64,000 bases of DNA from positions 15,224 through 79,223 of the forward strand of contig JACPIQ010000012.1 of assembly GCA_016188005.1 (NCBI GenBank). Reading direction: 5' to 3'. Made by a program: the position numbers and the translations under genes. The stretch comes from Candidatus Rokuibacteriota bacterium (lineage in GTDB: Bacteria > Methylomirabilota > Methylomirabilia > Rokubacteriales > CSP1-6). This document shows, in pieces, positions 22,243-63,971 of the stretch (the stretch's first letter is position 1; the number at the start of each line of letters is the position of its first letter). Below the pieces are notes generated by a model. The model ran no database searches. It saw only the letters and a list, made by a program, of their open reading frames with translations, and was not told the origin of the DNA.

Positions 22243-22245
22243 TCG

Positions 22246-25909: not shown

Positions 25910-25924
25910 GTGCGCGCCGAGGGA

Positions 25925-28442: not shown

Positions 28443-28458
28443 CGCCCGCCCCTACTCC

Positions 28459-29418: not shown

Positions 29419-29428
29419 CTCGCCACCT

Positions 29429-30295: not shown

Positions 30296-30400
30296 TCACT
30301 GGCTCCTATCGGATCCGCCATTGCCGACCCCGACCGACGACTTCCCGGAACCCCTGGCCCGACAGCCTCACAAAGCCCACGGCCTTTCCGGTCGCAGCTT

Positions 30401-31429: not shown

Positions 31430-31432
31430 TCC

Positions 31433-31774: not shown

Positions 31775-31858
31775 GCGTGCTCTCTCCGGCGCCCTCTTTC
31801 TCTCGCCTCAGCCAGGAGTCCTGAAAGATTCCTCACTCGGACAGCGACACAAGAGATT

Positions 31859-32143: not shown

Positions 32144-32213
32144 CACTAAGCCTCCTGTTGGCACGAATGTGAATGCATGGCTCCCAGCAAGAGCAACACA
32201 GCACTATCATCGA

Positions 32214-33212: not shown

Positions 33213-33481
33213 TCCGTATTCAACAGCGCCGCCAGACCAGGGCTCGGGTTCGCGATCACCGCGGCCTTCGCCTCTCCGAGTGCCTCCGCGGCTCGGAGTC
33301 CAGCATCCACCGCAACCCGCACGGCACCGATGTCACCCACCACGCACACCGAGACAATCGCATCCCCCACCTTCTCGTATCTGAGAACCCTGACCCTTGC
33401 CGTCTTCACCATGGTGTCAACGGCTTGCGCCAGCGAAACAAATCCCACCGTCTCGATGATCCCGACAGATCCATGCGCCAT
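33209..33481 (-). CDS. BMC hexamer shell protein (BMC-H, PF00936), second
   Basis: MAHGSVGIIETVGFVSLAQAVDTMVKTARVRVLRYEKVGDAIVSVCVVGDIGAVRVAVDAG. Confidence 0.85.
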   Translation of the reverse strand: MAHGSVGIIETVGFVSLAQAVDTMVKTARVRVLRYEKVGDAIVSVCVVGDIGAVRVAVDAGLRAAEALGEAKAAVIANPSPGLAALLNTE

Positions 33482-33593
33482 GGCCGCACTCCACGAGCGT
33501 GATGCGCTCACTCTGGCGTTCTGTACCGCTGACTCGAGTCCTCTGGGACGCTCCCTCACTCCATCGAAGAGCCCGCTGTGACCGAATTGCCCC

Positions 33594-34247
33594 CTATGAC
33601 CCCCACTGGCCCTGTTGGTCCGAAAACAGTGATCGCTCTGTGAGTTCGCCCTCGGACGGTTTCACACGTGTGATCTCGCTGAAAGCCTGCGCGAAATCCA
33701 TCTGCGGGTTCGTGACCAAGTGTGCTCCTACCATCTCGCCGACCCGACTCGCCTCGTGGGCTCCAACATCTATCGCATGCTGCACTGAAGCGATGTCGCC
33801 CACCACACACGCCGTGACAAGGCCGTCCCCGACAAGTTCATGCCCGACGAAGACCACGGCGACCGACTTCATCATCGCGTCCAACGCGAGGGCCAGGGGC
33901 AGAAGGCCTCTCGTTTCCAAGAAGCCCATCGACGCGGACGGACCAATTCGCGCCAAGCCTTCACCGATCTCGGGCCTCGAATGAAGTCCCAATAGGGCAA
34001 GCACCGCGCGACTCGGCGCAGGCAACACCGCCACCGCAATGTGTTTTTCGGGAGCGACTTGGAAGGCAGCGTCCGCTGCGTATTTCACCGCGGAGAGTGG
34101 CCCCTCAACGCACACCATCACGAAGCCGCCCCCGATCTTGTGGTATCTTCCCACCTTGACCGGCGCGGTCTTCACCATCGTATCTACCACTCGTGCCAGC
34201 CCGACAAACCCTCGCGTCTCCACCAAGCCAAGAGAACCGTTCATCAT
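33594..34247 (-). CDS. tandem-BMC-domain shell protein (BMC-T), second
   Basis: Start ATGATGAAC (MMNGSLGLVETRGFVGL...) preceded by AAGGGAAGGG. Second BMC domain MGFLETRGLLPLALALDAMMKSVAVVFVGHE...VVGDIASVQHAIDVG. Confidence 0.8.
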   Translation of the reverse strand: MMNGSLGLVETRGFVGLARVVDTMVKTAPVKVGRYHKIGGGFVMVCVEGPLSAVKYAADAAFQVAPEKHIAVAVLPAPSRAVLALLGLHSRPEIGEGLARIGPSASMGFLETRGLLPLALALDAMMKSVAVVFVGHELVGDGLVTACVVGDIASVQHAIDVGAHEASRVGEMVGAHLVTNPQMDFAQAFSEITRVKPSEGELTERSLFSDQQGQWGS

Positions 34248-34276
34248 TCTTGACACCCTTCCTTACTGCATGAAAT

Positions 34277-34293
34277 CGCCCAACACGTGCCCG
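34277..34293 (-). promoter_or_regulatory. candidate sigma-54 (-24/-12) promoter of the BMC operon: GGGCACG-N4-GGGCG
   Basis: On the minus strand GGCACG (-24) is perfect and the GC of -12 is correctly spaced, but the -12 box is GGGC rather than TTGC. The predicted TSS is ~20 nt upstream of the BMC-T start and its Shine-Dalgarno sequence. Confidence 0.3.
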
Positions 34294-34387
34294 AATCTCC
34301 CGTCTCGATGTATCCGATCTAGCTCACCAACCGTGCCTCTTGTGAGAGATTTCGGAGTATTGATGCTCTATACTGACGAAGTAGCCC

Positions 34388-34419
34388 TTGACTTAGCATC
34401 CCCCGTGGGACTAAGTCAA
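34388..34419. promoter_or_regulatory. perfect 9-bp inverted repeat TTGACTTAG-N14-CTAAGTCAA (candidate operator/UAS) between BMC operon and Lrp gene
   Basis: Read directly in the sequence. Lies ~100 bp upstream of the sigma54-like element in a 670-bp divergent intergenic region of lower GC. Confidence 0.3.
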
Positions 34420-34929
34420 TAGGGAAATGCAACACATCGTCCGAGGTCTCGGAGCGTGAGATCGCCGGGACCTGTCAAACCCATGTGAGACTGTTGCCGG
34501 GCGGGGGGAATCGACGGTGCCGGGTCTCCGGGGCGGGTTTGACGGTCTCAGCACGGGGGGCGGGGATGATCCCAGGCTTTGGGGCGAGGGGAAGCGAGGG
34601 CGTAGATGTGCTCGCGTTTTCGGTCAATGGTGTACTGGCGCTCCCGGGCCAACTGGATCGCCAGACGAAGCTGACGAGGTCCACGCCAGTCAAGCCCAGG
34701 GGTGGTCACACCCCAGTGATGCCGCTTGAGACAGACGTGGCGAATTGATTCGCGTCGGTGAACCCGCACCGCTTTGGCGGCCGCTCACCTCGAGCGTCGC
34801 GACCAGGCCACACTTGTTCAGCGGCTGGTCCGCCGTCTCCGCGACCTCGCCTTCGCCGGGGCAATTCAGCCCGCAGCTTAGGCCCTCCCTGACCACACCC
34901 GCGCGGCCGGGTATGTCTTCTTAGCTCTC

Positions 34930-35997
34930 ATGTCACGCAGCCCGTCGCGCAACAACGAGCCTCAGCAGCTGGACCTGGAAATCATTGCCAGGCTCCAGGA
35001 CGACGCGAGGATGCCGTTCACGGCAATCGCCGAAGAACTTGGGCTGTCTGAATCCACCGTCCGAAAGCGCGTCGCCAGGCTCCAGAAGCTCGGAATCCTG
35101 CACTTCACTGCGTTCGCAGATCCCTTGCGCCTTGGTTTCCAGTACTGGGCCCAGATCCAGGTCATGCTCGATCTCGCGACCCTGGAAACCACGGCTGCCG
35201 AACTCGCGAAGTACCCTGAGATTTTCTTCGTCGGCATCACAGCTACTGAGTACAACCTTTTCCTCGCCGGTATCTTCCGCTCGAACGCAGACCTCTTGAA
35301 CTTTCTCACGAGCCGTTTATCCAAGATGCCGGGCTTTCGAACGTCCATCACCTCAAACGTCTTGAAGATCTTCAAACGTCGTGGACTATTCTTCGCGGAT
35401 CAGCCCCGCCGCGCGCGTCGGCGGAGCCGGATCCTGGCCGGCCCATCAGGTGCCGATAGCGACGATCCGGTGCGTGTTGGGTCGCAAGACAAGATGATCA
35501 TCGCGTTGCTGCAGGCTGACGGCCGAAAGTCCCTTTCGCGAGTCGCAGCTGAACTCGGTATCGCGGAGGCGACGGCACACCGGCGAGTCGCCCGCCTCCA
35601 ACAGCTTGGCATCCTGCATTTTGAGGCTTTCGCGGACCCGCTACGCCTCGGTTTTCAGTACTGTGCGCTGCTCTCTCTTTCGGTGACGCCGAATCGCGTG
35701 AGTGAGGTCGCCGCAAGACTCGCGACGTTTCCTCAGCTGTTCTTCGTCAGTGTGACCACGGGCCAATGCGACATCTTCGTCGCTGGAGCCTTCCGCTCTA
35801 ACGAGGATTTCCTTCGCTTTCTGACCCGCGACATTGCAAACATTCATTGGATCACAGGCGTGTCCGCCACGAACGTACTGAGACTCGTGAAGCGGCAGCT
35901 TCTTTACCCACTCTTGGCCGAATTCGAAGGCAGACGACCGGATTCCGAGAAGGCAGCGAGGCCACCCCGGGCTTCTTCGGCTAGACCGCGTGGCTGA
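34930..35997 (+). CDS. tandem-duplicated Lrp/AsnC-family transcriptional regulator (two HTH+RAM units in one polypeptide)
   Basis: Two repeats of ...LDLEIIARLQDDARMPFTAIAEELGLSESTVRKRVARLQKLGIL... / ...DKMIIALLQADGRKSLSRVAAELGIAEATAHRRVARLQQLGIL..., each followed by a RAM-like domain. Divergent from the BMC operon. Confidence 0.8.
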   Translation: MSRSPSRNNEPQQLDLEIIARLQDDARMPFTAIAEELGLSESTVRKRVARLQKLGILHFTAFADPLRLGFQYWAQIQVMLDLATLETTAAELAKYPEIFFVGITATEYNLFLAGIFRSNADLLNFLTSRLSKMPGFRTSITSNVLKIFKRRGLFFADQPRRARRRSRILAGPSGADSDDPVRVGSQDKMIIALLQADGRKSLSRVAAELGIAEATAHRRVARLQQLGILHFEAFADPLRLGFQYCALLSLSVTPNRVSEVAARLATFPQLFFVSVTTGQCDIFVAGAFRSNEDFLRFLTRDIANIHWITGVSATNVLRLVKRQLLYPLLAEFEGRRPDSEKAARPPRASSARPRG

Positions 35998-36256
35998 TCG
36001 GCGAAGGCATACTCCCTGGGCTGGCCATCGCGGCGCCAAAGGGAGTCTCGCGTGGTCCCAAGACCGCGCACCGTGAGAGGACCAGAACGCGACCATGTCC
36101 TCCGCAGCCACAGCTTCGGCCGCCGCACAACGCTCTTCGAGCAACCCCAGACCTCTGACGTCACCTCCTTCGGGCCGCGTTTGGCCTGACGCTCTTCCCC
36201 GCCACTTGCTCATCCATTTTACTCTCCTCATGTCTTCCTCAAACATGCGGAACTCC

Positions 36257-36440
36257 TCACCTACGTCCAGGATGCTCGTAGCTCCGCCGTCGACGACGAG
36301 ATTCGTGCCCGGCCGCGACCGTTTCAGCTGCCCTGAGATTCACATCGTTCACAGCCACCGCACAGCCTTCGCGCCCGAAGCGCAGAGCGGTCGCCCGACC
36401 TATTCCCGAGCCGCCCCCGGTGATGAGCGCCGTCAAGCAG
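36257..36440 (-). pseudogene. truncated short-chain dehydrogenase/reductase (SDR) N-terminal fragment
   Basis: ALITGGGSGIGRATALRFGREGCAVAVNDVNLRAAETVAAG (Rossmann TGxxxGIG) then divergence and a stop after ~60 codons. No start codon. Confidence 0.4.
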
Positions 36441-36605
36441 AGGTTCACTGCATCCCTCTTCGGCCTCGAGCGGGCGCGGACATCCGGCCCAACCGGGCAC
36501 GAACACTTGGACGCTCGCGCAGATCGCGGTCTATCGGACCTCGATCGACGGGCCCCCGTGCTCCCGCCCCACTTGCAACCTCTCCGTGACTGCTGGCGAC
36601 CGTCA

Positions 36606-37436
36606 TCAACGACGATCGACAAAATCAAGGATCGCCTTGGCCCAGGGTTCTGGATAGAGACGCGGCATCTCGCCGCCTCCCTCAACTCTGATCTCGACTA
36701 GCCTCGCCGCCGGCTGATCGCGCAGCCATTCATCCGAGGCGCTGCAAATATGGACGTCGTCGCTCGCGCGGATGAACAGAATTGGGACGCTGACGAGAGG
36801 TAGCTTCTTCGAGGCATCGTAGGAGAACTGCATAACGTAGGGCTCGAACCGTCGTGAACCAGTCTTGACTTGCTCGAGGAAAAACTCGCTCAGTAGATCG
36901 AGACGATCGGCCGGCAGCCGAGGCTTCCCCCAGTTCGTCTGCAGCCCCTCCCGCCACAGGTCAAGAAGGTGTGTTCCGTCTATCCGCGGCACCGGATCCG
37001 CCAATTTCGATGCCTTCGCATGAAGCTCCCGCAACATCGTCGTATCGCCGACGTATGCGAGACCTGACAAGATTACGCAGCTCACGATATCTGGGCGCTG
37101 CAGCGCAACTTCCATCGCAACATCCGCACCCGAATGGTGACCGGCAACCGCGGCACCCGAGATGCCAAGCTCCGCCAGTGCTGAGCAGATGGCAGAGCCA
37201 TGTTCCTCAAGGGTATACGGTTTCGGCGGTGCGTCGGAATCGCCGCACCCCATCCAATCAAATGCGATGACTCGATGGGATCGGCCGAGAAGGGGCATGA
37301 CGAGCCTGTAATCGAGGGAAGTGCGCAAGATTTGGTGGATCAGCACGATCGGGCTTCCCTCGCCCATCTCACGATAGAACATTTGGCCGTCCAATGTATC
37401 GACGAACCCGCGACGCATTCGAATGTCCGCCACCAC
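36606..37436 (-). CDS. alpha/beta-fold hydrolase
   Basis: 276 aa. Nucleophile elbow GHHSGA. HGW-like oxyanion region. C-terminal His. Confidence 0.8.
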   Translation of the reverse strand: MVADIRMRRGFVDTLDGQMFYREMGEGSPIVLIHQILRTSLDYRLVMPLLGRSHRVIAFDWMGCGDSDAPPKPYTLEEHGSAICSALAELGISGAAVAGHHSGADVAMEVALQRPDIVSCVILSGLAYVGDTTMLRELHAKASKLADPVPRIDGTHLLDLWREGLQTNWGKPRLPADRLDLLSEFFLEQVKTGSRRFEPYVMQFSYDASKKLPLVSVPILFIRASDDVHICSASDEWLRDQPAARLVEIRVEGGGEMPRLYPEPWAKAILDFVDRR

Positions 37437-37626
37437 ATCCCTCCGCGTGATGAAGCACCTATTGGCGCTTCCCGTCGTCAGCGGTTTTCGGACTCTGCGA
37501 GGCCGCGCGGGACTCGAAGGTCGCCGGCCAGTTCCCCCGAGTGCCCTGCATAGCCGCGGTCCGATTGTAGCGAACGCACCGGGCCAGAGTCCCGCTCTTT
37601 TGAGCCGCCCGCCGCCGGATCGCCTC

Positions 37627-37762
37627 TCACCGGCCGAGGTTGTTGCCCGTGTTGATGGCCGCCACGCCGAGGCCCATCGCGGCGAAGAGGCACCACCACC
37701 CGTCCCGGGTGGGCCAGATGGTGCGCGGCGGTCTGAGGCGTCGCCAGAGACTCACGAAAGCT
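37627..37762 (-). pseudogene. truncated 5' fragment of DUF58 gene (right junction of inserted segment), ~126-bp direct-repeat copy B
   Basis: Encodes VSLWRRLRPPRTIWPTRDGWWCLFAAMGLGVAAINTGNNLGR*, which is 96% DNA identity to the start of the intact DUF58 gene at 18027-18156 and then terminates. Confidence 0.6.
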
Positions 37763-37783
37763 GGGGCGTCCGCTCCCGCCCGG

Positions 37784-38734
37784 CTACCGGGGGACGGGAG
37801 TGTCCTGGACCAGCGCACGGATGATCGACTCGCCGTCCGCGCCGCCGCCGGCCTGGCCCAGCGCCGCCTTGACGATCACGCGGTGGGCCAGCGCCGGCAC
37901 CGCCAGCGCCTTCACGTCGTCGGGCACCAGATAGTCCCGCCCGTCGCAGAGCGCCCGGGCGCGCGCCGCGCGCAGGAGCGCGATCGAACCCCTCGGGCTG
38001 ACGCCGAGGCTCAGGAACGGCGAGGCGCGCGTGGCCGCCACCAGCGCCATCAGGTAGTCGAGCACCGACTCCTCGGCCCGCACACGCTCGGCCTCGGCCT
38101 GGAGCGCCAGCACCTCCCGTGCGCTCAGCACGGGCTCGACGCTCTCCTGCGGAGCGCCGCCCGCGCCCCGCAGAATCGCCTTCTCGTCGGGAGCGCCCGG
38201 GTAGCCGATCCGGATCCTGAGCAGGAAGCGGTCGAGCTGCGACTCGGGGAGCGGGAAGGTCCCCTCGTACTCGCGGGGGTTCTGGGTCGCCAGCACCATG
38301 AACGGGCGCGGCAGCGGGTAGGTGGCGTGGTCGAGGGAGACCTGCGCCTCGTTCATGGCCTCGAGGAGACTGGACTGGGTCTTGGGCGTGGTCCGGTTGA
38401 TCTCGTCGGCCAGCACGATGTTGGTGAAGAGCGGCCCGGGCTTGAAGACGAACTCGCCCTTCTCGGGCTGGTAGATGGAGACGCCGATGACATCCGAGGG
38501 GAGCATGTCGGAGGTGAACTGGATGCGCTGGAAGCCGCAGCCGATGGAGCGGGCCAGCGCCGCGCCGAGCGTCGTCTTGCCCACCCCGGGCACGTCCTCG
38601 ATGAGGAGGTGGCCGCGGGCCAGGAGTCCGGTCACCGCCAGGCGCACCACCTCGGGCTTGCCGACCAGGGCCCGGCCGACGCTCTCCTCGAGGCGGCGGA
38701 TCTGCTCCAGGGCACGCTGCATGGCCTCTTTCAT
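37784..38734 (-). CDS. MoxR-family AAA+ ATPase
   Basis: Start MKEAMQRALEQI. Walker A GVPGVGKTTLG. Walker B LLADEINR. MoxR-specific arrangement. Normally followed by DUF58 and transglutaminase genes. Confidence 0.9.
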   Translation of the reverse strand: MKEAMQRALEQIRRLEESVGRALVGKPEVVRLAVTGLLARGHLLIEDVPGVGKTTLGAALARSIGCGFQRIQFTSDMLPSDVIGVSIYQPEKGEFVFKPGPLFTNIVLADEINRTTPKTQSSLLEAMNEAQVSLDHATYPLPRPFMVLATQNPREYEGTFPLPESQLDRFLLRIRIGYPGAPDEKAILRGAGGAPQESVEPVLSAREVLALQAEAERVRAEESVLDYLMALVAATRASPFLSLGVSPRGSIALLRAARARALCDGRDYLVPDDVKALAVPALAHRVIVKAALGQAGGGADGESIIRALVQDTPVPR

Positions 38735-45820: not shown

Positions 45821-46852
45821 ATGCGGACATCCGTCGGACGCAGGGCGCTCGCCGGTATCACCGCCCTGAGCCTCGCGCTGTGGGCGAGCCCGGCCTTCGC
45901 CCAGGGCCAGGCCGTCAGCATCGGCACCAACCCGCCGGGGTCGGTCTTCTACTCGGTGGGCAGCGGTCTGGCCAAGGTCGTCAGCGATAGCGGCAAGCTC
46001 AAGATGGCCGTCCAGCCCTACGCGGGGTCGAGCACCTTCATCCCGATGCTCAACAGCGGCGAGATGGAGTTCGGCGTCGTCAACGCGGTGGACATGGCGC
46101 TGGCCTATCGGGGCCCAGGCTTCAAGATCGGCGGGCGCAATCCCTTCCCCCATGCGTCGAACGCCCGGCTCGTCATGCGGGGTTCGCCGCTCCTGGTGGG
46201 CCTCGTGGTGCGGAAGGACTCACCGATCAAGAGCGTCCACGACGTCAAGGGCAAGCGGATGACCGGTGAGTACCCCGCGCACCTGGCCGTCTGGTACAAC
46301 ATGTTCGGCCACCTGGCGAGCGCGGGGCTCACCTGGAGCGACGTGAAAGTGGTGCCGGTCCCGGCGATCAACGAGGGCATGGACGCCCTGGTCCAGGGCC
46401 GCGCCGACGTGACCGAGTACGCGCTCAACGCGGCCAAGGTCAAGGAAGCCGACGCGGCAGTCGGCGTTCGCCACGTCTCCATCGACTGCTCGCCCGAGGG
46501 AGAGCGGCGCCTCCGCGCGGCCGTGCCCGGGTACTACCCGCGCGTCGTCAAGGCCGGGACGGCGACCGCCGTCACCGAGGATACCTGCGTCATCGCCTAC
46601 GACCTCTACGTGGCGACGGGCAAGGGCGTCGCCGACGCGCCGGTGGAGAGCACGCTGCGCGCGATCTGGGACGGCGTGGACAGGCTGCCGGCGGCCCACC
46701 CCGTGTTCAGGGAATGGACGCGAGGGCGCTTCGTGGACGTGGATGCGACCCTTCCCTATCATCCCGCCGCCGTCCGCTTCTACAAGGAGCGCGGCGTCTG
46801 GACGCCACAGATGGAGCAGGCGCAGCAGAAGCTCCTGTCGCTGAACCCGTAG
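45821..46852 (+). CDS. TAXI-family TRAP transporter solute receptor
   Basis: Signal peptide, TAXI family (Imp/TRAP-associated) pattern. Immediately followed by the fused permease. Confidence 0.8.
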   Translation: MRTSVGRRALAGITALSLALWASPAFAQGQAVSIGTNPPGSVFYSVGSGLAKVVSDSGKLKMAVQPYAGSSTFIPMLNSGEMEFGVVNAVDMALAYRGPGFKIGGRNPFPHASNARLVMRGSPLLVGLVVRKDSPIKSVHDVKGKRMTGEYPAHLAVWYNMFGHLASAGLTWSDVKVVPVPAINEGMDALVQGRADVTEYALNAAKVKEADAAVGVRHVSIDCSPEGERRLRAAVPGYYPRVVKAGTATAVTEDTCVIAYDLYVATGKGVADAPVESTLRAIWDGVDRLPAAHPVFREWTRGRFVDVDATLPYHPAAVRFYKERGVWTPQMEQAQQKLLSLNP

Positions 46853-46867
46853 GGCCGGGCCGCCCCG

Positions 46868-48811
46868 GTGGCCGACGCCGTCTCCAAGTTCCGGGCGCTG
46901 CGCGGCGCGCCGCGGGGGGTGGAGCGGGCGCTGCTATCGGCGGTGACGCTCCTCGGCAGCCTCTGGGCGCTCGAGGTCCACCACCACCTCCCCTGGGCGT
47001 TCTTCAAGGAGCAGTACCTCGGCCTCTTCCTCGGGGTGAGCCTCGCCGCGGTGTTCGTCGCCGTGAAGGCCCATGCGGGAGGGCGTGAGGACCGCGTGGC
47101 CTGGCATGACTGGGGCCTCGCCGCGGGCGGGCTCGGCGTGGGGCTCTACGTCACGCTGCGCTACCCCGTCATCGCCTATCAGCTCGGTGTGCTCACCTGG
47201 GACAAGGTCGCCCTCGGCGCGCTGGCGATCGCCCTCGTGCTGGAGGCGGCGCGCCGGCTGGTCGGCTGGGTGATGGTGGCGCTGGCGGCCGTCTTCATCC
47301 TGTACGCGAAATTCGCCTGGCTCCTGCCGGGGCTCCTCGCCGGCAAGGGGGCGTCGTGGGAGCGCATCGCCGTCTACCTGTACCTGGACACCAACGGCCT
47401 CCTCGGCCTGCCGCTGGCGGTGACAGCGGGGATGGTCGTGGCCTTCATCTTCTTCGGCCAGGTGCTCTACGCCGTGGGCGGCGACCGCTTCCTCACCGAT
47501 CTCGCCATGGCGCTCATGGGGCGCTACCGGGGCGGGCCGGCGAAGGTGTCGGTGGTGGCCTCCTCCCTCTTCGGCACGGTGTCGGGCAGCGCGGTGTCCA
47601 ACGTGGTGGTGGACGGACCCATCACGATCCCGATGATGAAGCGCAGCGGGTACGCGCCGCATGTGGCGGCAGCCATCGAGGCCGTGGCCTCCACGGGCGG
47701 CCAGATCATGCCCCCGGTCATGGGCGTCGCGGCCTTCCTCATCGCCGAGTTCCTCTCGCTCCCTTACTCCGAGGTGGCGCTGGCCGCTGTGATCCCGGCG
47801 CTCCTCTACTACCTGGCGCTCTTCGTCCAGGTGGACCTGGAGGCAGCCAGTCACGGGCTCGTCGGGCTTCCCGCGCGGGATCTGCCGCGGCTCCGCGACG
47901 TGCTGCGCCGCGGCTGGAGCTTCCTCATCCCGCTGGGCGTGCTCGTCTACACGCTGATGATCGCCTCCTGGGAGGCGGGCAAGGCCGGGATGGCGGCCGT
48001 CATCGCCACGCTCGTGGTGGGCGCGCTCCAGTGGGAGGACCGGCTGACGCCGGCCCGGCTCTGGCGGGCCATCGAGGAGGCCGGGCGCGTGCTGCTGGAC
48101 ATCGTCGCCATCACGGCCGTGGCCGGCTTCGTCATCGGCGTGCTGCAGCTCTCGGGGCTCGGCTTCAAGTTCTCCCTACTCCTCGTCACCGTGGCCGGGG
48201 GAAGCGCGCTGGGCCTGCTCGCGCTCACCGCGGTGGTCTGCATCATCCTGGGCATGGGCATGCCCACGGCCATCGTCTACATCATGCTGGCCGTCCTCGT
48301 GGGCCCGGCCCTCGTCCAGCTCGGGATCGCGCCGCTGGGCGCGCATCTCTTCCTCTTCTACTTCGGGATGCTGTCCATGATCACGCCGCCCGTGTGCCTG
48401 GCGACGTACGCCGCGGCCTCCATCGCGCGCTCCGACTTCATGAAGACGGGGTGGACGGGGATGCGGCTCGGCATCGTCGCCTACGTGGTGCCCTTCGTCT
48501 TCGCCTTTCACCCCTCGCTCCTGATGCAAGGCTCGGTCGCGGAGATCGTGCTCGCCGCCGCGTCGGCGGCCGGCGGCGTGATCCTCCTCGGCACGGGCTG
48601 CGCTGGCCACCTCTTCAGGGCGCTGTCCTGGCCCCGGCGCGGGGCGGCCGCGCTGGCGGGGCTCTTGCTGATCCCCCCGCCGTCGAGCGGCCCCTGGCTC
48701 GCCGCCAATCTCGCGGGGCTGGCGCTCGGCATCGCCTTTGGCGTCTCGGAGTGGACGGCCCACGGGCGGGCGCTGCCCGTGGCCGTCCCCGCAGCGCAGC
48801 GCGAGCCATGA
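46868..48811 (+). CDS. TRAP transporter fused 4TM/12TM permease (TAXI-type DctQM fusion)
   Basis: 647 aa polytopic membrane protein directly downstream of the TAXI receptor. Confidence 0.8.
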   Translation: MADAVSKFRALRGAPRGVERALLSAVTLLGSLWALEVHHHLPWAFFKEQYLGLFLGVSLAAVFVAVKAHAGGREDRVAWHDWGLAAGGLGVGLYVTLRYPVIAYQLGVLTWDKVALGALAIALVLEAARRLVGWVMVALAAVFILYAKFAWLLPGLLAGKGASWERIAVYLYLDTNGLLGLPLAVTAGMVVAFIFFGQVLYAVGGDRFLTDLAMALMGRYRGGPAKVSVVASSLFGTVSGSAVSNVVVDGPITIPMMKRSGYAPHVAAAIEAVASTGGQIMPPVMGVAAFLIAEFLSLPYSEVALAAVIPALLYYLALFVQVDLEAASHGLVGLPARDLPRLRDVLRRGWSFLIPLGVLVYTLMIASWEAGKAGMAAVIATLVVGALQWEDRLTPARLWRAIEEAGRVLLDIVAITAVAGFVIGVLQLSGLGFKFSLLLVTVAGGSALGLLALTAVVCIILGMGMPTAIVYIMLAVLVGPALVQLGIAPLGAHLFLFYFGMLSMITPPVCLATYAAASIARSDFMKTGWTGMRLGIVAYVVPFVFAFHPSLLMQGSVAEIVLAAASAAGGVILLGTGCAGHLFRALSWPRRGAAALAGLLLIPPPSSGPWLAANLAGLALGIAFGVSEWTAHGRALPVAVPAAQREP

Positions 48812-49212
48812 CGCGCGCCAGCATCGACAGCACGGCCGAGGCCTATCTGGAGCTGCTTGCCGCGCGCGGCGTGGAGTACCTCCTCGCCAATGCGGGGACG
48901 GACTTCGCCCCGCTCATCGAGGCCCATGGCCTGCCCGTCCTCTTCGTCGTCTTCAACAACCGCGCGTGGGGCGCCGTGAAGCGCGCCGTCACCTCCCATG
49001 CCCGCGAGGGCTGGGCCGTGAGGGCGGGCGCCATGCCCTTCGTCGATCTCGACCCGGCCCCCGACTACGAGCTGATCTGTCAGGCCTCGGGCGGCCACGG
49101 CGAGCGGGTGGAGGACCCGGCGGCGCTGCCCGCCGCCCTCGCCCGCGCGCTCGGCGTCGTCCGTGACGAGAAGCGCCAGGCGCTCGTCAACGTCATCTGC
49201 AAGAAGCCGTGA
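48808..49212 (+). pseudogene. internally deleted thiamine-diphosphate enzyme remnant (N-terminal ~35 aa fused to C-terminal ~100 aa)
   Basis: MTRASIDSTAEAYLELLAARGVEYLLANAGTDFAPLIEA (ThDP-enzyme N-terminus) joins directly to LPVLFVVFNNRAWGAVK... (ThDP-binding C-terminal domain). Only 134 aa versus ~550 expected. Confidence 0.5.
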
Positions 49213-49234
49213 GAGCCCCGGAGGGACTCGCCCC

Positions 49235-50590
49235 ATGGCACAGGACCTGAGAAGCTACCTCGACCTGATCAAGCGCCGGCGCCCGGAGGACTTCCGGATC
49301 GTCTCGAAGGAGGTGGACCCGGCCCACGAGATCACGGCCATCGTGGCGAAGGCGGAGCGCGAGGCCCGGCAGCGCCCGGTGATGCTCTTCGAGAACGTCA
49401 AGGGCTCGCGCTTCCCGGTGCTCACCAACCTGCACGCCAGCCGCTCGCGCCTGGCCACCGCCATGGGCTGTGCCCCGGAGGAGATGCTCGAGACCTATCT
49501 CCGCGCCATGGAGAAGCCGATCCCGCCGCGCGTGGTGCCGACGGGTCCGGTGAAGGAGGTCGTCCTCACCGGAGCCCAGGTGAACCTGTACGACCTGCCG
49601 CAGATCGTCCACCATCAGGGCGACGCGGGGCCATACCTCACGGCGGCCATCTCCTTCGCCCGGGACCCCTCCGCGGAGACGTGGAACTGCGCCTACAACC
49701 GCCTGATGGTGAAGGGGCGCGACACCACCTCCATCCACCTCACCGCGGGCAAGCACCTCTGGGAGTTCTACCGGATCGCCGAGTCGCTCGGGAAGCCCCT
49801 GCCCGTGGCCTTTGCCGTCGGCGTGCATCCGGCCGTCGCCCTGGGGGCACTGGCGATCGGCTCCATCGACGAGGACGAGCGGGCCATCATGGGGGCGCTG
49901 CTCGGGGAGCCGCTGGAGCTGGTCCGCTGCGAGACCTCGGACGTGCTCGTGCCGGCGCATGCCGAGCTGGTGATCGAGGCCGAGATCCTCCCGGCCGAGC
50001 GCATCCCGGAGGGACCCTTCGGCGAGTTCACCGGCTACAGCCTGGGAGAGCGGCAGCGCGAGGTCGTCCGCGTTCGGGCCATCACCCACCGGCAGGGCGC
50101 CCTCTTCCAGGACATCACCGTGGCGCATCTCGACCACATGCTGCTCTCGACCATCCCCATGGAGGCCAACCTCTACCGCGCGGTGCGCGCCATGGTCCCC
50201 TCGGTCCGGGCCGTGCGGGTGCCGGGGCCCTTCACCTGCTACGTCTCCCTCGAGCAGCGGCTGCCCGGCCAGGCCAAGAACGCCATCCTCTCGGTCCTCG
50301 GCGCCGACCTCTACATGAAGCGGGTCGTCGTGGTGGATCAGGACGTGGACGTGTTCGACGACCGGCAGGTGACCTGGGCCATCGCCACGCGCTGCCAGCC
50401 TGACCGCGACATCGCCATCATCACCGGCGCGCGGGGCTCGGATCTCGACCCCTCGACGCGGGAGGACGGCTACACCGCGAAGTGGGGCGTGGACGCCACG
50501 GCGAAGCCATCGCTGGCGTCGTACACGCCGCGCCACCGCGTGCCGCCCGAGGTGTGGAAGCGGCTCAACCTGAAGGACTACCTGCCCTGA
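49235..50590 (+). CDS. UbiD-family (prFMN-dependent) decarboxylase
   Basis: 451 aa. UbiD family motifs (EGPFGEFTGY, conserved E/R triad region). Confidence 0.85.
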   Translation: MAQDLRSYLDLIKRRRPEDFRIVSKEVDPAHEITAIVAKAEREARQRPVMLFENVKGSRFPVLTNLHASRSRLATAMGCAPEEMLETYLRAMEKPIPPRVVPTGPVKEVVLTGAQVNLYDLPQIVHHQGDAGPYLTAAISFARDPSAETWNCAYNRLMVKGRDTTSIHLTAGKHLWEFYRIAESLGKPLPVAFAVGVHPAVALGALAIGSIDEDERAIMGALLGEPLELVRCETSDVLVPAHAELVIEAEILPAERIPEGPFGEFTGYSLGERQREVVRVRAITHRQGALFQDITVAHLDHMLLSTIPMEANLYRAVRAMVPSVRAVRVPGPFTCYVSLEQRLPGQAKNAILSVLGADLYMKRVVVVDQDVDVFDDRQVTWAIATRCQPDRDIAIITGARGSDLDPSTREDGYTAKWGVDATAKPSLASYTPRHRVPPEVWKRLNLKDYLP

Positions 50591-52014
50591 TGGTCCTCGC
50601 GGAATCCCGCGAGGCCCGGGCCGTGAGCGAGAACTTCGCGGAGCTGCTGGACAGGAGCTCCTGCGCGGCGCCCGGCGCGCCCGCTCTCGTGTGGGAGGGC
50701 GGCGCGCTCACGCGGGCCGAGCTCGCGCTGCGGGCGGGCGGCGTGGCGCGGGTGCTGCGCGAGCGCGGCGTCCGCGCCGGCGACCGCGTGGCGCTGTCGC
50801 TTCCCAACGGCTGGCCCTTCGCCGCGACGCTCTGGGGGGCGCTGAAGCTCGGCGCGACGGTCACCCCGCTGAATCCGCGACTCACCGGCGAGGAGCGGGG
50901 GAGGATCCTCGGCGATCTCCGGCCGGTGACCGTGATCGAGAACGTCGTGGACGCGCGGGCGCCGTGGCCGAGCGCCGAGGCGAGCGCTCCGGCGCTCATC
51001 CTCTACACCTCCGGCAGCACGGGCGAACCCAAGGGGGTCGTCCTCTCGCACGCGGCGCTGACCTTCGCCAACCGCTCCTGGGTGGGTCCTGTCATGGGCC
51101 TCACCGCCGCGGACGTGGTCCTCGCGGCGCTGCCGCTGTCGCACTCCTTCGGCCTCAACGGCGCGCTCCTCGCCCCGCTCCTGGCCGGAGCCTCGGTGGT
51201 GCTCCTCGGCCGCTTCTCGCCGGAAGGAGCGCTCGCCGCCATCGCGCGCCATCGCGTGAGCGTGGTCCCCGCGGTGGCAGGCATGTTCAGGCGGATGCTC
51301 GACGCGAGGACCTTCGACGCCGCCGACCTCGGAAGCCTCCGCGCCGCCGTGTCAGGAGCGGCCCCGTGCCCCTGGGAGCTGGCGCGGGAGTGGCGCGCGC
51401 GCACCGGCGTCAGGATCATCCGCGGCTACGGGTCGACGGAGCTGTTCCGTCCCCTCTCCCACCTCGTCGGCGATCCCCGCGAGGAGCCAGAGGCCGTGGG
51501 GCGCCCCGTGCCCGGCGTCGAGATCGCCGTGATGGACGAGGCGGGAGCCCCCGTGGCGGCGGGGGAGGTGGGAGAGCTCTGGATCCGGACGCCAGCCGCC
51601 ATGGAAGGCTATCTCCACCGGCCGGACGAGACGCGTGAGGTCCTCGTGGAGGGCTGGTTCAGGACCGGCGACCTCGTCATCCGGTCGCCGGAGGGCTACG
51701 TCAGCGTCGTGGGGCGCAAGCGGGAGCTGATCCTGCGGGGCGGCTACTCCGTCGTGCCGGGCGAGATCGAGGCGGTGCTCCTCGCCCACCCGGCCGTGGC
51801 CGAGGCCGCCGCCGTCGGCAGGCCGCATCCCGAGCTGGGCGAGGAGGTGGCGGCCTTCGTCACGCTGCGCCCGGGGGCGGCGAGCAGTCCCGAGGAGCTG
51901 ATCGCCCACTGCCAGGCACGGCTGGCAGGCTTCAAGTGCCCGCGCCAGGTGCGGATCGTCGCGGAGCTCCCGAAGGGCGCCACGGGCAAGGTCCTCAAGA
52001 GCCGGCTCAGCTGA
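50590..52014 (+). CDS. AMP-dependent acyl-CoA synthetase/ligase
   Basis: AMP-binding motif LILYTSGSTGEPKGV, YGSTE, GEL/GWFRTGD, and C-terminal K (PKGATGKVLK). ATG overlaps the UbiD stop. Confidence 0.85.
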   Translation: MVLAESREARAVSENFAELLDRSSCAAPGAPALVWEGGALTRAELALRAGGVARVLRERGVRAGDRVALSLPNGWPFAATLWGALKLGATVTPLNPRLTGEERGRILGDLRPVTVIENVVDARAPWPSAEASAPALILYTSGSTGEPKGVVLSHAALTFANRSWVGPVMGLTAADVVLAALPLSHSFGLNGALLAPLLAGASVVLLGRFSPEGALAAIARHRVSVVPAVAGMFRRMLDARTFDAADLGSLRAAVSGAAPCPWELAREWRARTGVRIIRGYGSTELFRPLSHLVGDPREEPEAVGRPVPGVEIAVMDEAGAPVAAGEVGELWIRTPAAMEGYLHRPDETREVLVEGWFRTGDLVIRSPEGYVSVVGRKRELILRGGYSVVPGEIEAVLLAHPAVAEAAAVGRPHPELGEEVAAFVTLRPGAASSPEELIAHCQARLAGFKCPRQVRIVAELPKGATGKVLKSRLS

Positions 52015-52945
52015 AGATGCTCTCGGGCAGGAAGGCCGAGACGATCCAGTGGGGTGCGTCCACGATCTCGCTGATCCTGAGATCCACGGCCACGCTCGAG
52101 AGGACGTAGGCCTCCTCGCGCGAGAGCCCGCGCTCCTCCACCAGGTGGTCGATCATGTAGCGCGTCGCCTGCTGGGCTGCGGCGAAGAGGTCGGGGCCCT
52201 GCGCCGTCGTCGCGAACCAGGGGCCGCGATGCGTCCCCGGGCCGAGCGCGCCCCGGATGCGCAGCCTCGGCTCCGGCAGCCGCCGGCCCTCGTCGAGGCC
52301 GAAGCGGAGCGTGACCTGTGCCGTCATCTCCACCGCCGTCACGCACACCTCGCCGTCGCCCTGGGCGGCATGGGCATCCCCCACGCTGAAGAGCGCGCCC
52401 TCCACCCAGACCGGGAGGTACAGCGTCGAGCTGGCGGTGAGCTGCTTCACGTCCATGTTGCCGCCGTTCTTCCGGGGCGGCAGGGTGCTGTGGCTTCCCG
52501 GCTCGTCGAGGGCCACGCCCATGACGCCGGGGAAGGCCTCGATGGGCACGGCGATCCCGCGCCCCATGCGCGCGTGGCGGCCGTCGGAGAGATCCCAGAT
52601 CTGCAGGTATGGCGTCGGGAACTCCGCCTCGGGGAGGAGGCCGCGGCCGGGACGGACCGCCGTCCAGCCGAAGGCGGCCGCGGGCTTGACCTCCAGCACC
52701 TCCACGGCGAGGACGTCTCCCGGCTCGGCCCCGCGAACCCTGACGGGGCCCGTGAGCGGGTGGCCGCGGAAGGGCCCACGGGCCAGCACGTCGGCATGGG
52801 AGGACGAGGGCGCGTAGTAGCCGCCGGAGGCATCGCGGGTGTCGAAGACCACCGTGTCCCCGGGATCGATGACGAGCCGGGGGGCCAGCGCGTTGTTCCA
52901 CTCGTAGTGGACGAGGCCGGCGTCGAGCCGATGCGTGCGCGTCAC
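52007..52945 (-). CDS. acetamidase/formamidase family protein (FmdA/AmdA)
   Basis: HRLDAGLVHYEWNN N-terminal motif and NGGNMD metal-site motif. GTG start overlapping the PPOX stop (GTGA). Confidence 0.75.
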   Translation of the reverse strand: MTRTHRLDAGLVHYEWNNALAPRLVIDPGDTVVFDTRDASGGYYAPSSSHADVLARGPFRGHPLTGPVRVRGAEPGDVLAVEVLEVKPAAAFGWTAVRPGRGLLPEAEFPTPYLQIWDLSDGRHARMGRGIAVPIEAFPGVMGVALDEPGSHSTLPPRKNGGNMDVKQLTASSTLYLPVWVEGALFSVGDAHAAQGDGEVCVTAVEMTAQVTLRFGLDEGRRLPEPRLRIRGALGPGTHRGPWFATTAQGPDLFAAAQQATRYMIDHLVEERGLSREEAYVLSSVAVDLRISEIVDAPHWIVSAFLPESIFS

Positions 52946-53361
52946 GGCTCGAGCCCCCACGTGAACACCCGCGCCGGAGTCACCTCGACGATGACCGAGT
53001 CGGACTCCTCGAGCGCGGCCTCGCCGGGGTACTGCGGGTACTTCGCGTAGAGGAGACGCCGGATCCGCCTGAAGGCGGGACCCCGCTCGATGAGCCGCGG
53101 CCGGCCCTGGACCATCACACCCTTGAGCCCGGACCATTGTTCCGTGTACAGATCCACGGTGAGGGCGATCCGGGGATTGGCTCTCAGGTTGAGCACCTTC
53201 CGGCCGCCGGGGCCCGAGGCGAAGTAGATCTTCCCGTCGGTGACCACGTGACAGACCGGCACCACGTGCGGCATGCCGCCGGGACCCGCCGTCGCCACCC
53301 GGCAGACCCGCTCCCAGCGGAGCAACGCTTCCACGCGCTTCGTGAGCCTCACAGGGACCAC
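52942..53361 (-). CDS. pyridoxamine 5'-phosphate oxidase-like (PPOX class, probable F420/FMN-binding) protein
   Basis: 139 aa split-barrel pattern (VATAGPGGMPHVVPVCHV...GKIYF...). Confidence 0.7.
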   Translation of the reverse strand: MVPVRLTKRVEALLRWERVCRVATAGPGGMPHVVPVCHVVTDGKIYFASGPGGRKVLNLRANPRIALTVDLYTEQWSGLKGVMVQGRPRLIERGPAFRRIRRLLYAKYPQYPGEAALEESDSVIVEVTPARVFTWGLEP

Positions 53362-53484
53362 TTATGCCGCAGCGCGGGGGCCTGCGCAAGACACCCTTCC
53401 CGCGGGGCGATGCAGCGGCCGAAGCGGCACCCGATGCCTCACGCCGCGCATCCTGGGGGTAGAATACGGCGCGGGCACCGGGAC

Positions 53485-54147
53485 ATGGCCTTCTCCAACG
53501 ACTGCTGGCGCGCCATCGAGGACGTCTACGGAGCGATCCTCCGCCACCCTTTCCTCGCCGGGCTCACCGACGGCTCGCTGCCGCGCGAGAGCTTCCGCTT
53601 CTACGTCGTCCAGGACGCCCTCTATCTGCGGGACTTCGCCCGGGCGCTCTCGCTGGCCGCCGCGCGCGCACCGCGCGAGGACTGGATCATCATGCTCGAC
53701 GAGCACGCGGCCGGCGCGCTCAGGGTGGAGCGCGCGCTGCACGAGGGCTTCTTCCGCGACTTCGGCCTGAGCCCGGAGGCCGTGGCCGCCACCCCCCTGG
53801 CCCCGACCAACCTCGCCTACACGAGCTACCTGCTGGCCGTGGCCCACGGCGGCCCCTTCCACGAGGCGCTGGCGGCGCTGCTGCCCTGCTACTGGATCTA
53901 CTGGGAGGTGGGGCGGACGCTCGAGCGGCGCGGCTCCCCGGACCCGCTCTACACCCGGTGGATCGCGACCTATGCCTCCGAGGAGTTCGGCGCTGTCGTC
54001 CGCGCGGTGCTGGAGGCGGCCGACATCACCGCCGCGCAGCGCGCCCCGGCCGAGCGAGAGACCATGCGCCGCCACTTCGTCGCCACCAGCCGCTACGAGT
54101 GGATGTTCTGGGACATGGGCTACCGGCGCGAGTCGTGGCCGGTCTGA
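53485..54147 (+). CDS. TenA/PqqC-like heme-oxygenase-fold protein (thiaminase II family)
   Basis: MAFSNDCWRAIEDVYGAILRHPFLAGLTDGSLPRESFRFYVVQDALYL TenA signature. Confidence 0.75.
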   Translation: MAFSNDCWRAIEDVYGAILRHPFLAGLTDGSLPRESFRFYVVQDALYLRDFARALSLAAARAPREDWIIMLDEHAAGALRVERALHEGFFRDFGLSPEAVAATPLAPTNLAYTSYLLAVAHGGPFHEALAALLPCYWIYWEVGRTLERRGSPDPLYTRWIATYASEEFGAVVRAVLEAADITAAQRAPAERETMRRHFVATSRYEWMFWDMGYRRESWPV

Positions 54148-62533: not shown

Positions 62534-63085
62534 CTACGCCTCGCCCCGGCTCCGGAGCCCCTGCGCGTACGACCAGCCCTCCGCCGCGGCGCGCCGGTTC
62601 ACGGCGAGGAGCCGGCTCGGTGTTCGCGCCTCGATCGCGCGCTCGACGTGCTCGAGTGTGGCGACGCCGGTCAGCGCCGCCACAACGGCGACGCACGCCA
62701 TGTTCGCCGCCTTGGCCGCCCCCGCGCGCTCCGCCATGGCCACCGCGGGGAGCGAGACCACGCGCCGCCCGGCCGCGTCGCGCTCGGGCACCCGCGCCGG
62801 ATCGGCGAGCACGAGCGCGTCGTCCGCCGTGCGGCTCGCGAAGTGATTGAAGGACCGTTGGGTGAGCGCCACCAGCACGTGTGGCCGGACGCCCCACGGG
62901 AAGGCCAGCTCGCTGTCGCTCACGATCACGTCGGCGTACGAAGGGCCCCCGACGATGACCGGCGCGTAGAACTGCGACTGCGACACGTGATGGCCGGCGT
63001 GGACACCGGCTGCTTCCGCCAGAACGATGCCGGCAATGACGAGCCCCTGTCCTCCATCTCCGGCGAACCGCACCTCGGTGCGCAT
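62534..63085 (-). CDS. 2-oxoacid:ferredoxin oxidoreductase gamma subunit (POR family)
   Basis: Start MRTEVRFAGDGGQGLVIAGIVLAEAA (PF01558 pattern). Confidence 0.75.
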   Translation of the reverse strand: MRTEVRFAGDGGQGLVIAGIVLAEAAGVHAGHHVSQSQFYAPVIVGGPSYADVIVSDSELAFPWGVRPHVLVALTQRSFNHFASRTADDALVLADPARVPERDAAGRRVVSLPAVAMAERAGAAKAANMACVAVVAALTGVATLEHVERAIEARTPSRLLAVNRRAAAEGWSYAQGLRSRGEA

Positions 63086-63089
63086 GGCC

Positions 63090-63971
63090 TCACCCCCTGG
63101 CCGCGGCGCCCGCCCGGTCGGCGAGCTTCGCTGCGGTGGCGGAATACATCTCGACGAACTCCGGCTTGTGCTGCTCGTGCAACACGCCGATCTCCCACTT
63201 CCCGCTGTCCGGGCCAACCCGCCCGGATGTCTCCGGCGTCACGCGTACGGTGTTCTCCTTGAAGTGCCGGAGCCACTGCGTGGCCTCGGGCATGCCGTTG
63301 CGCTTGCCGTAGAGCACGTGGCAGTGCTGCAGCGCCTCCACCACCGAGAAGCCCTTATGACGGATCGCGCGCTCCAGCATGTTCGTCATATGCACGGCGT
63401 GGTACGACGTGCTGCGCGCGACGAACGTGGCTCCCGCCCCGATCGCCAGGCGACAGGCGTCGAATGGGTACTCGAAGCAGCCGGCGGGCGACGTCTCGGT
63501 CATCCCGCCGAGCGGCGTCGACGGGCCGTACTGCCCTCCGGTGTTGGCGTAGCCGAAGTTGTTGACGATCAGGACGGTGATGTCGATGTTCCGGCGGGCT
63601 GCGTGGATGAAGTGGCTCGCGCCTATGGCGAGCGCGTCGCCGTCGCCCTGGATCGTGATGACCGTCAGCTTCGGGTTCGCGAGCTTCAGGCCGATGCCGA
63701 CGGCGCACGCGCGGCCATGGGCGCCGTGGATGTGGCTGCTCTGGAAGTACTCCCCCATGATTCCGTAGCAGCCGCTCCCGCCCACCGTGACCACGGAGCC
63801 GAGATCGAGCTCGAGCCGGTACATCGCGCGGGCGAGCGCCGACTGCACGATGCCGAGCCCGCAGCCCGGACAGTACCGTAACGTCTCGCCGGCCTCGGCA
63901 TCCGGCAGCCGCGCGGTCGCGCGGGCCAGTTCGTCCATCGGGATCGCCATCGTCCTCGTCGTCGCCATCAC
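63090..63971 (-). CDS. 2-oxoacid:ferredoxin oxidoreductase beta subunit (ThDP-binding)
   Basis: CPGCG...GxGC and GDGD ThDP motif (TIQGDGDALAIGASHFIHAARRNIDITVLIVNN). Confidence 0.85.
   Translation of the reverse strand: MMATTRTMAIPMDELARATARLPDAEAGETLRYCPGCGLGIVQSALARAMYRLELDLGSVVTVGGSGCYGIMGEYFQSSHIHGAHGRACAVGIGLKLANPKLTVITIQGDGDALAIGASHFIHAARRNIDITVLIVNNFGYANTGGQYGPSTPLGGMTETSPAGCFEYPFDACRLAIGAGATFVARSTSYHAVHMTNMLERAIRHKGFSVVEALQHCHVLYGKRNGMPEATQWLRHFKENTVRVTPETSGRVGPDSGKWEIGVLHEQHKPEFVEMYSATAAKLADRAGAAARG

Follow-up and report, generated by a model that had tools for sequence, protein, structure and literature searches.

A UbiD-ligase operon of Rokubacteria with a TAXI-TRAP importer and an apparent remnant of a thiamine diphosphate enzyme gene

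The operon described here lies on the plus strand, at positions 45821-52014, of a 64-kb stretch of DNA (the window) from a soil Rokubacteria metagenome-assembled genome (Methylomirabilota). It consists of five consecutive open reading frames (ORFs), which encode a TAXI-family TRAP solute-binding protein, a fused TRAP permease, a 134-aa remnant of a thiamine diphosphate (ThDP) enzyme, a UbiD-family (de)carboxylase dependent on prenylated flavin mononucleotide (prFMN) and an AMP-forming acyl-CoA ligase. Judged by sequence comparison, the UbiD protein belongs to a Rokubacteria-wide clade of its own, beside the furandicarboxylate decarboxylase HmfF and putative xanthine-8-carboxylate decarboxylases, and is not of the canonical, phthaloyl-CoA or carboxylase type. 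The 134-aa ORF appears to be a recent and decaying remnant of a dead gene, which is intact in relatives. An earlier, sequence-only reading of the locus as a UbiD cluster of the aromatic-acid type whose ThDP gene is deleted gets the outline right and the closest analogies wrong.

UbiD enzymes are sought as catalysts of reversible (de)carboxylation, and only a handful of their substrate classes are known. The locus points to an abundant, uncharacterised UbiD clade of soil bacteria, which automated annotation systematically labels as furandicarboxylate decarboxylase and which comes with a CoA ligase of its own and no UbiX nearby. In addition, close relatives hold a natural erosion series of a single ThDP gene (from 569 aa to 134 aa, to 92 aa and to 13 codons) that reveals the dispensable parts of the cluster. 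Current understanding is not overturned by these observations; their value lies in a defined target for enzymology and in a tidy example of stepwise gene loss. A literature search found no paper that mentions Rokubacteria together with UbiD.

Gene organization of the operon

The elements of the operon are the following.

45821..46852, plus strand: TAXI-family TRAP solute-binding protein, 343 aa (Pfam NMT1_3, 2.8e-31; NCBIfam TIGR02122, 131.6 against a cut-off of 84.35)
46868..48811, plus strand: fused TRAP (DctQM-type) permease, 647 aa (Pfam DctM, 1.4e-92; TIGR02123 TRAP_fused, 610.4 against a cut-off of 320.65)
48808..49212, plus strand: apparent remnant of a ThDP-enzyme gene (NF006203/PRK08327 family), 134 aa (sole Pfam match TPP_enzyme_C, positions 71-151)
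49220..49226, plus strand: Shine-Dalgarno-like GGAGGGA, read from the sequence, 8 nt 5' of the UbiD ATG and within the 22-nt spacer
49235..50590, plus strand: UbiD-family prFMN-dependent (de)carboxylase, 451 aa (Pfam UbiD_N, UbiD and UbiD_C)
50590..52014, plus strand: AMP-forming acyl-CoA ligase of the ANL superfamily, 474 aa (Pfam AMP-binding and AMP-binding_C)

The five ORFs lie at the coordinates read from the sequence alone, and Pfam and NCBIfam agree with the domains that had been assigned to them. The first two genes, separated by 15 nt, make up a TAXI-TRAP system, i.e. a TAXI binding protein with an adjacent fused DctQM permease, both scoring above the cut-off of their NCBIfam model. 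The binding protein starts with an N-terminal signal peptide, MRTSVGRRALAGITALSLALWASPAFA, which is followed by QG (cleavage between AFA and QG). The start codon of the ThDP remnant overlaps the stop codon of the TRAP gene (ATGA), and the UbiD stop and the ligase ATG share 1 nt (TGATG). The proposal that the UbiD and ligase genes are each translationally coupled to the gene before them thus holds for the ligase, but not for the UbiD gene, which starts 22 nt past the stop of the remnant, does not overlap it and has a ribosome-binding site of its own. The same GGAGGGA element is found 5' of UbiD in the sister loci L003 and L001. At the 3' end of the operon, the ligase gene and a minus-strand formamidase-family gene lie tail to tail with an overlap of 8 nt. 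A scan for promoters and terminators gave nothing usable.

Placement of the UbiD protein

The UbiD protein is full length, as had been read from the sequence, with the three domains PF20695, PF01977 and PF20696 above cut-off and an intact catalytic Glu-Arg-Glu network. The generic model TIGR00148 (335.1 against a cut-off of 244.85) is the only NCBIfam model that it passes. It fails the models for canonical UbiD (PRK10922, 158.6 against 788), for the menaquinone protein MqnL (TIGR03701, 214.6 against 495.9), for VdcC (306.7 against 650) and for the phenylphosphate-carboxylase type (TIGR02723, 146.6 against 564.6; TIGR02724, 135.4 against 468.95). Compared with solved relatives, it scores 331 bits against the HmfF of Pelotomaculum (PtHmfF; 6h6x), 197 against AroY, 188 against VdcC, 165 against indole-3-carboxylate decarboxylase (InD), 145 against E. 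coli UbiD and 136 against Fdc1. Phthaloyl-CoA decarboxylase (Pcd; 8oz5/8pmk), at ~80 bits (79.6, E 1.7e-21), is the weakest of the 40 solved relatives. Two analogies of the sequence-only reading fail on these numbers: the one with Pcd, because it is the weakest solved relative, and the one with benzene and naphthalene carboxylases, because the phenylphosphate-type models stay far under cut-off. What does stand is that the protein is not a canonical UbiD and that its relatives have an aromatic-acid-type gene context, consisting of a benzoylformate-decarboxylase-like ThDP enzyme, a 2-hydroxyacid dehydrogenase and an Amidohydro_2 protein; its place is beside HmfF instead of with Pcd.

Four HmfFs were used as references, namely PtHmfF (taken from the structure alignment), GkHmfF of Geobacillus and two proteobacterial proteins from plasmid-borne hmfFG-ABCDE clusters (L086 and L087). 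PtHmfF and GkHmfF are defined by experiment, the proteobacterial pair by its gene context. According to the alignment, the catalytic network (R152, E254 and E259 in PtHmfF) and the metal/phosphate-binding Asn are kept in the window UbiD and in all Rokubacteria orthologues. His296, Arg304 and Arg331 (PtHmfF numbering) are all invariant in the four HmfFs, whereas the window UbiD conserves the equivalent of His296 and lacks both arginines. Arg304 is a Met in the window UbiD, and a Met or Ile across the Rokubacteria orthologues, and Arg331 falls inside a deletion of 3-4 residues in all of these orthologues. The two arginines reportedly bind the distal carboxylate of furandicarboxylate. The His governs furan specificity in HmfF (PMC7976604). 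The HmfFs share 49-55% identity among each other, against 38-44% with the window UbiD (44% for PtHmfF).

A neighbour-joining tree (500 replicates, explicit bipartition counts) recovered the Rokubacteria orthologues as a clade with a bootstrap of 100% and the HmfFs as a clade with ~98% (97.6%), and a grouping of the two together with 0.2%. A bootstrap of 93% was found for the Rokubacteria orthologues together with a Rokubacteria paralogue and putative xanthine-8-carboxylate decarboxylase-type proteins. The tree has few taxa, being drawn without LA1_0150, isophthaloyl-CoA decarboxylase, PhdA, AbcA, HudA and InD. Because of this small sampling and of the simple method, it is the exclusion of the window UbiD from the HmfF clade that we regard as its firm outcome.

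LA1_0150 is the xanthine-8-carboxylate decarboxylase (XCDC) of Cupriavidus sp. LA-1, a UbiD member encoded in the lumazine/pterin degradation cluster of that organism (PMC12391406). In the plasmid collection, the three closest homologues from cultured organisms (38-40% identity) come from LA-1-like clusters, with two amidohydrolase-like subunits, UbiD, UbiX, a GTP-binding protein, a nucleobase permease and a Mo-hydroxylase; their identity as XCDC goes by this context. They have in common with the Rokubacteria proteins the 93% grouping and a position next to HmfF among enzymes for heteroaromatic acids, whereas the window locus differs in having no Mo-hydroxylase, UbiX or nucleobase permease.

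The ligase and the binding protein

The ligase belongs to the ANL acyl-CoA ligases and shows their core motifs SGSTGEPKG, GYGSTE and GRKR. Its substrate class is not assignable, as its scores stay under every NCBIfam equivalog cut-off; among solved structures, feruloyl-, malonyl- and benzoate-CoA ligases come nearest (~1e-65). With HmfD it shares 27-31% identity, whereas the HmfD of Geobacillus and the proteobacterial HmfDs share 41%. Many of the UbiD orthologues carry the JGI label "2,5-furandicarboxylate decarboxylase 1". In view of the exclusion from the HmfF clade, the missing arginines and a ligase that is not HmfD, this label is probably an over-annotation.

The TAXI binding protein has remote relatives among the solved TAXI proteins, the nearest at E ~1e-18, so that its ligand cannot be inferred from them. 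Its relatives on plasmids (29-35% identity) are found in uninformative contexts.

Conservation of the cluster across Rokubacteria

A scan of species-representative genomes yielded 80 loci, nearly all in Rokubacteria/Methylomirabilota, with UbiD proteins that are 74-92% identical. Neighbouring genes were counted at loci with enough flank, i.e. 63 for the ligase and 51 for the upstream genes. The ligase gene lies directly 3' of UbiD in all 63. Upstream, an intact ThDP gene is present at 33 loci and absent from the other 18, and TAXI-TRAP genes are present at 13, 12 of which have the ThDP gene as well. The most common full order is TAXI-TRAP-ThDP-D-2-hydroxyacid dehydrogenase-Amidohydro_2-(0-2 further genes)-UbiD-ligase, where the Amidohydro_2 protein is closest to the branch of non-oxidative decarboxylases (LigW, ACMSD and gamma-resorcylate decarboxylase). 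This protein was considered as a tetraoxypteridine-isomerase subunit of the lumazine pathway and rejected, as blastp at 1e-3 gave no match to the amidohydrolases of the XCDC clusters.

Other arrangements occur. At 12-14 loci a formamidase-like gene and TenA are found directly upstream of UbiD-ligase. An SBP_bac_5 ABC importer replaces TAXI-TRAP in one relative, and the genomes that are syntenic with the window (sharing the MoxR, deacetylase, luciferase-like and 3-hydroxyisobutyrate-dehydrogenase-like flank) have ThDP-UbiD-ligase without a transporter. At L094 (4564-6515) UbiD is gone and, of the ligase, just the final 75 aa remain behind the ThDP gene, and in the sister locus L001/L004 (L001, 5204-6007) the TAXI gene lacks its first ~75 codons, signal peptide included. 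Between the window and its sisters, the ratio of non-synonymous to synonymous substitution rates (dN/dS) is 0.13-0.29 across the TAXI, TRAP, UbiD and ligase genes, indicating purifying selection; against L001 it is 0.15 for TAXI and 0.21 for TRAP, and for the ligase a value of 0.29 was obtained. The cluster is modular and often remodelled, and the UbiD-ligase pair is its stable core, which is under purifying selection in the lineage of the window.

UbiD paralogues of 31-41% identity are found in several related clusters. They lie ~8-9 kb upstream of UbiD in L020, L021 and L036 and directly upstream of it in L050 and L081, both of which show a tandem ligase-UbiD-UbiD-ligase duplication.

The ThDP-enzyme remnant

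The 134-aa ORF was described from the sequence alone as the first ~35 residues of a ThDP enzyme joined to its last ~100. The internal deletion is real, and gene-order comparison shows the gene to be intact in relatives (569 aa; L002 and others), but the parts that are joined are 40 and ~94 residues. Codons 1-40 of the intact orthologue are fused in frame to codons 475-569, and 434 codons (41-474) are deleted. At L002, where the UbiD protein is 86% identical to that of the window, the intact gene precedes UbiD; with its product as a tblastn query, residues 4-41 and 474-569 match the window ORF. The junction lies between 48927 and 48928 (GAG GCC followed by CAT). In intact genes, codons 39-41 are GAG GCC TAY and codons 474-475 are GCC YAC, with the deletion running across a short GCC-YAY microhomology.

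The ORF lacks the make-up of a ThDP enzyme (PYR, middle and PP domains, the catalytic Glu and the GDG...NN motif). In the intact orthologue the catalytic Glu60 (PHE60) and GDG456, the start of the ThDP/Mg motif, fall in the segment that is deleted here, which means that the remnant cannot be a ThDP enzyme. It scores 120.7 bits with NF006203, against 690 for the intact orthologue and a cut-off of 456. This family (PRK08327), "thiamine pyrophosphate-requiring protein", has no assigned function. The solved structures nearest to the intact orthologue, at only ~1e-31, are benzoylformate decarboxylase and 2-hydroxyacyl-CoA lyase, of which type of enzyme the window copy keeps only ~134 residues.

Two sister loci, with UbiD proteins that are both 92% identical to that of the window, have eroded further. 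At L003 a C-terminal ORF of 92 aa is left, with a new ATG that overlaps the TRAP stop, and at L001/L004 13 codons are left, directly followed by the ribosome-binding site of UbiD. The in-frame junction, the microhomology and these further-eroded copies in two independently assembled sisters argue against a chance ORF or an assembly quirk, and the short remnants in the sisters indicate that the ThDP gene is being lost in this lineage. For the C-terminal part of the remnant, dN/dS between the window and L003 is 0.33 (16.5 non-synonymous and 15.5 synonymous changes), as compared to 0.13 for UbiD in the same pair and to 0.09-0.15 for the same segment of intact ThDP genes at similar dS. The excess over the intact copies is weakly significant (Fisher p ~0.03). 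A repeat scan around the remnant gave nothing usable.

We therefore have to weigh decay against retention of the ORF, either as a small protein or as a translated spacer that is selected for UbiD expression. Retention would explain why the deletion is in frame and the ATGA coupling to TRAP is kept, why the 92-aa ORF of the sister, seen on 5 contigs, is in frame and also overlaps the TRAP stop with its start, and why a dN/dS of 0.33 lies below the neutral expectation (binomial p ~0.01). However, the catalytic Glu, the entire middle domain and the GDG cofactor motif are gone, the second sister is down to 13 codons while its UbiD and ligase genes are intact, and the dN/dS exceeds that of intact copies by a factor of 2-4, where any leftover constraint can predate the deletions. 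Selective retention is on this balance improbable, and we conclude that the 134-aa ORF is what its sequence suggests, a recent and decaying remnant of a dead ThDP gene; a residual role as a translated spacer is possible. The gene would formerly have stood complete between the transporter and UbiD, have been inactivated by a microhomology-mediated in-frame deletion of the 434 codons and now be on its way out. The remnant would persist only because the deletion is recent and the ORF still bridges translation from TRAP towards UbiD.

A large number of database proteins, all of exactly 183 aa, comprise nothing but the C-terminal ThDP-binding domain of the family. They suggested a naturally split ThDP enzyme, and some may be genuine split genes, but the one example inspected (L093) turned out to be a case of fragmented gene calls; ThDP and UbiD are both split there, on a single ENA metagenome contig.

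Proposed function of the UbiD-ligase pair

The locus would be a partially eroded version of an accessory catabolic cluster widespread in Rokubacteria, with the TAXI-TRAP importer, the prFMN-dependent decarboxylase and its dedicated acyl-CoA ligase as the working parts. An anionic (hetero)aromatic carboxylate would be imported by the TAXI receptor and the fused permease. UbiD would then remove the ring carboxyl from the free acid, using prFMN from a UbiX encoded elsewhere in the genome, and the ligase would couple CoA to the carboxylate that remains or is formed, yielding a thioester for downstream metabolism. These steps follow the same logic as HmfF and then HmfD in furan degradation. We consider decarboxylation of the imported free acid, followed by thioesterification of the product, to have somewhat better than an even chance of being correct, where we infer alike in which direction the reaction runs, in what order the steps follow and what kind of substrate is used. 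The reading is favoured by the resemblance of UbiD to free-acid decarboxylases, by the presence of an anion importer and by the HmfF-HmfD precedent; the nearest characterized relatives (HmfF and the putative xanthine-8-carboxylate decarboxylases) use free heteroaromatic acids and not CoA esters. The substrate is probably not 2,5-furandicarboxylate.

Several observations weigh against this proposal. No Rokubacteria orthologue has the two arginines that all four HmfFs share; the sequences thus give no hint of a dicarboxylate substrate, and it is hard to name the carboxylate that would be left for the ligase after decarboxylation. The link between transporter and enzymes is loose, with TAXI-TRAP at 13 of the 51 loci and an ABC importer in one relative. 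No genes of a downstream CoA-dependent pathway are evident beside the operon. Finally, tblastn at E<=1 with two genuine UbiX proteins, and a further search with an E. coli UbiX probe (which matches Pfam Flavoprotein, PF02441, at 146 bits), found no UbiX in the 64-kb window, nor within 10 kb of UbiD at 82 related loci. The absence of UbiX that had been noted for the neighbourhood of the operon thereby extends to the entire window and to these loci. In cultured organisms a UbiX-type gene (counting VdcB) adjoins UbiD in 7 of 8 relatives, the eighth being GkHmfF (L085), for which the gene table is incomplete. In the absence of UbiX from the locus, prFMN must come in trans if UbiD is active.

The model of the sequence-only reading reverses the order of the steps: the ligase would first convert an aromatic dicarboxylate into its CoA ester, and UbiD would decarboxylate the acyl-CoA. 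Anaerobic phthalate clusters indeed contain TAXI-TRAP, a CoA transferase or ligase, a UbiD-like (iso)phthaloyl-CoA decarboxylase and always UbiX (PMC13040137). Apart from UbiX the parts list agrees, with TAXI-TRAP, a CoA-activating enzyme and UbiD for o-phthalate and a ligase and UbiD for isophthalate; moreover, the adjacency of UbiD and ligase is invariant, and the loss of the arginines for the distal carboxylate matters less if the second carboxyl bears CoA. The likeness is one of architecture only, however. Among the solved relatives Pcd stands farthest off (79.6 bits, where HmfF has 331; isophthaloyl-CoA decarboxylase is not among the sequences compared), the window UbiD has, with 451 aa, the length of the free-acid enzyme PtHmfF (448 aa) and not that of Pcd (514-527 aa), and the UbiX that is always present in the known phthalate clusters is missing here. 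The reaction order is probably reversed relative to the phthalate systems, and we regard ligation before decarboxylation as unlikely.

Decidedly doubtful is a carboxylation module, in which UbiD would carboxylate an unsubstituted (hetero)arene and the ligase would pull the equilibrium by ATP-dependent thioesterification, as has been suggested for benzene and naphthalene carboxylases and their aryl-CoA ligases. A strict and translationally coupled UbiD-ligase pair is what such a thermodynamic couple needs, the lack of a site for a distal carboxylate is consistent with a monocarboxylate product, and UbiD-type carboxylases have been proposed for the anaerobic activation of polycyclic aromatic hydrocarbons (PMC12016498). 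Yet against the phenylphosphate-carboxylase branch, where the known carboxylases are placed, the window UbiD scores 146.6 and 135.4 with cut-offs of 564.6 and 469, and these carboxylases are multi-subunit complexes, whereas a single UbiD gene is found here. An anion importer lies upstream, and within the window there is no sign of a strictly anaerobic aromatic metabolism.

A true furan pathway with HmfF and the 2-furoyl-CoA synthetase HmfD, as follows from the automated annotation of 84%-identical relatives, is very improbable: PtHmfF is the best solved match, in agreement with the JGI labels, the specificity His is conserved (PMC7976604) and the order of decarboxylase and ligase fits the logic of the pathway (PMC8091172), but UbiD falls outside the HmfF clade by both identity and bootstrap, it lacks Arg304 and Arg331, the ligase and HmfD share no more than 27-31% identity, and neither hmfG nor hmfABCE lies nearby, where the reference clusters L086 and L087 are hmfFG-ABCDE. 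What the locus does share with the HmfF/HmfG and HmfD system of Cupriavidus basilensis HMF14 (PtHmfF, 6h6v/6h6x) is the UbiD fold at nearly the same length, the catalytic network, the His and a decarboxylase gene that precedes one for an AMP-forming CoA ligase (PMC8091172, PMC7976604); it differs in that the ligase is no HmfD orthologue, in the position of UbiD outside the clade, in the lack of the two arginines and in the lack of HmfG and hmfABCE.

Going beyond free-acid decarboxylation as such, there is a slim chance that the UbiD-ligase module, with its 74-92% identity across Rokubacteria and no UbiX at the loci, represents a new UbiD branch that acts on a substrate novel for prFMN enzymes, e.g. 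an N- or S-heteroaromatic carboxylate, or else an ATP-driven carboxylation couple in aerobic soil bacteria. Very speculatively, the grouping with xanthine-8-carboxylate decarboxylase-type enzymes, the TenA/formamidase-like pair and the ThDP neighbours might point to the processing of products of thiamine or pterin breakdown.

Neighbouring genes and other features of the window

Downstream of the operon, the window contains a divergent pair.

52007..53389, minus strand: acetamidase/formamidase-family gene (Pfam FmdA_AmdA, 5e-58); true start probably ~52940
53137..54147, plus strand: TenA (thiaminase II) homologue (TIGR04306, 153.8 against a cut-off of 130); true start probably ~53455

The relatives of the formamidase-family gene align only from residue ~152 on. 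TenA adjoins UbiD-ligase at 14 of the 80 loci, often 100-160 nt upstream of UbiD and on the same strand, and at 12 loci the formamidase-family gene accompanies it there. Both genes are recurrent neighbours of the UbiD-ligase pair and may or may not belong to its pathway. As a divergent pair (52007-54147) they might serve the salvage of thiamine pyrimidine, by a formylaminopyrimidine deformylase and TenA. At gathering thresholds Rfam has no match in the window, and hence no TPP riboswitch near TenA.

The G+C content is 70-75% across the window, with the exception of a 20-kb block at 18000-38000, where it is 60-64% and the third-position GC is lower as well. In this block 16 of the 18 assigned genes are on the minus strand; a Lrp/AsnC regulator (34930-35997) and an unassigned ORF (31587-32438) are on the plus strand. 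The genes comprise two DctPQM TRAP systems, an acetyl-CoA hydrolase/transferase, several luciferase-like monooxygenases, two Amidohydro_2 proteins, an alpha/beta hydrolase and a double Lrp/AsnC regulator. The syntenic relative L096 has no such block at the MoxR boundary. Two switches in composition within one contig, together with the relative without the block, suggest a horizontally acquired island and not a chimeric assembly.

Inside the block, an ORF at 32214-33212 on the minus strand has two BMC (bacterial microcompartment shell) domains; its surroundings yielded no further microcompartment genes. At the right end of the window (62534-63971, minus strand) lie genes of the 2-oxoacid:ferredoxin oxidoreductase type (a POR gamma domain and a TPP_enzyme_C subunit), which adjoin a MaoC-like dehydratase and an ABC importer of the peptide type.

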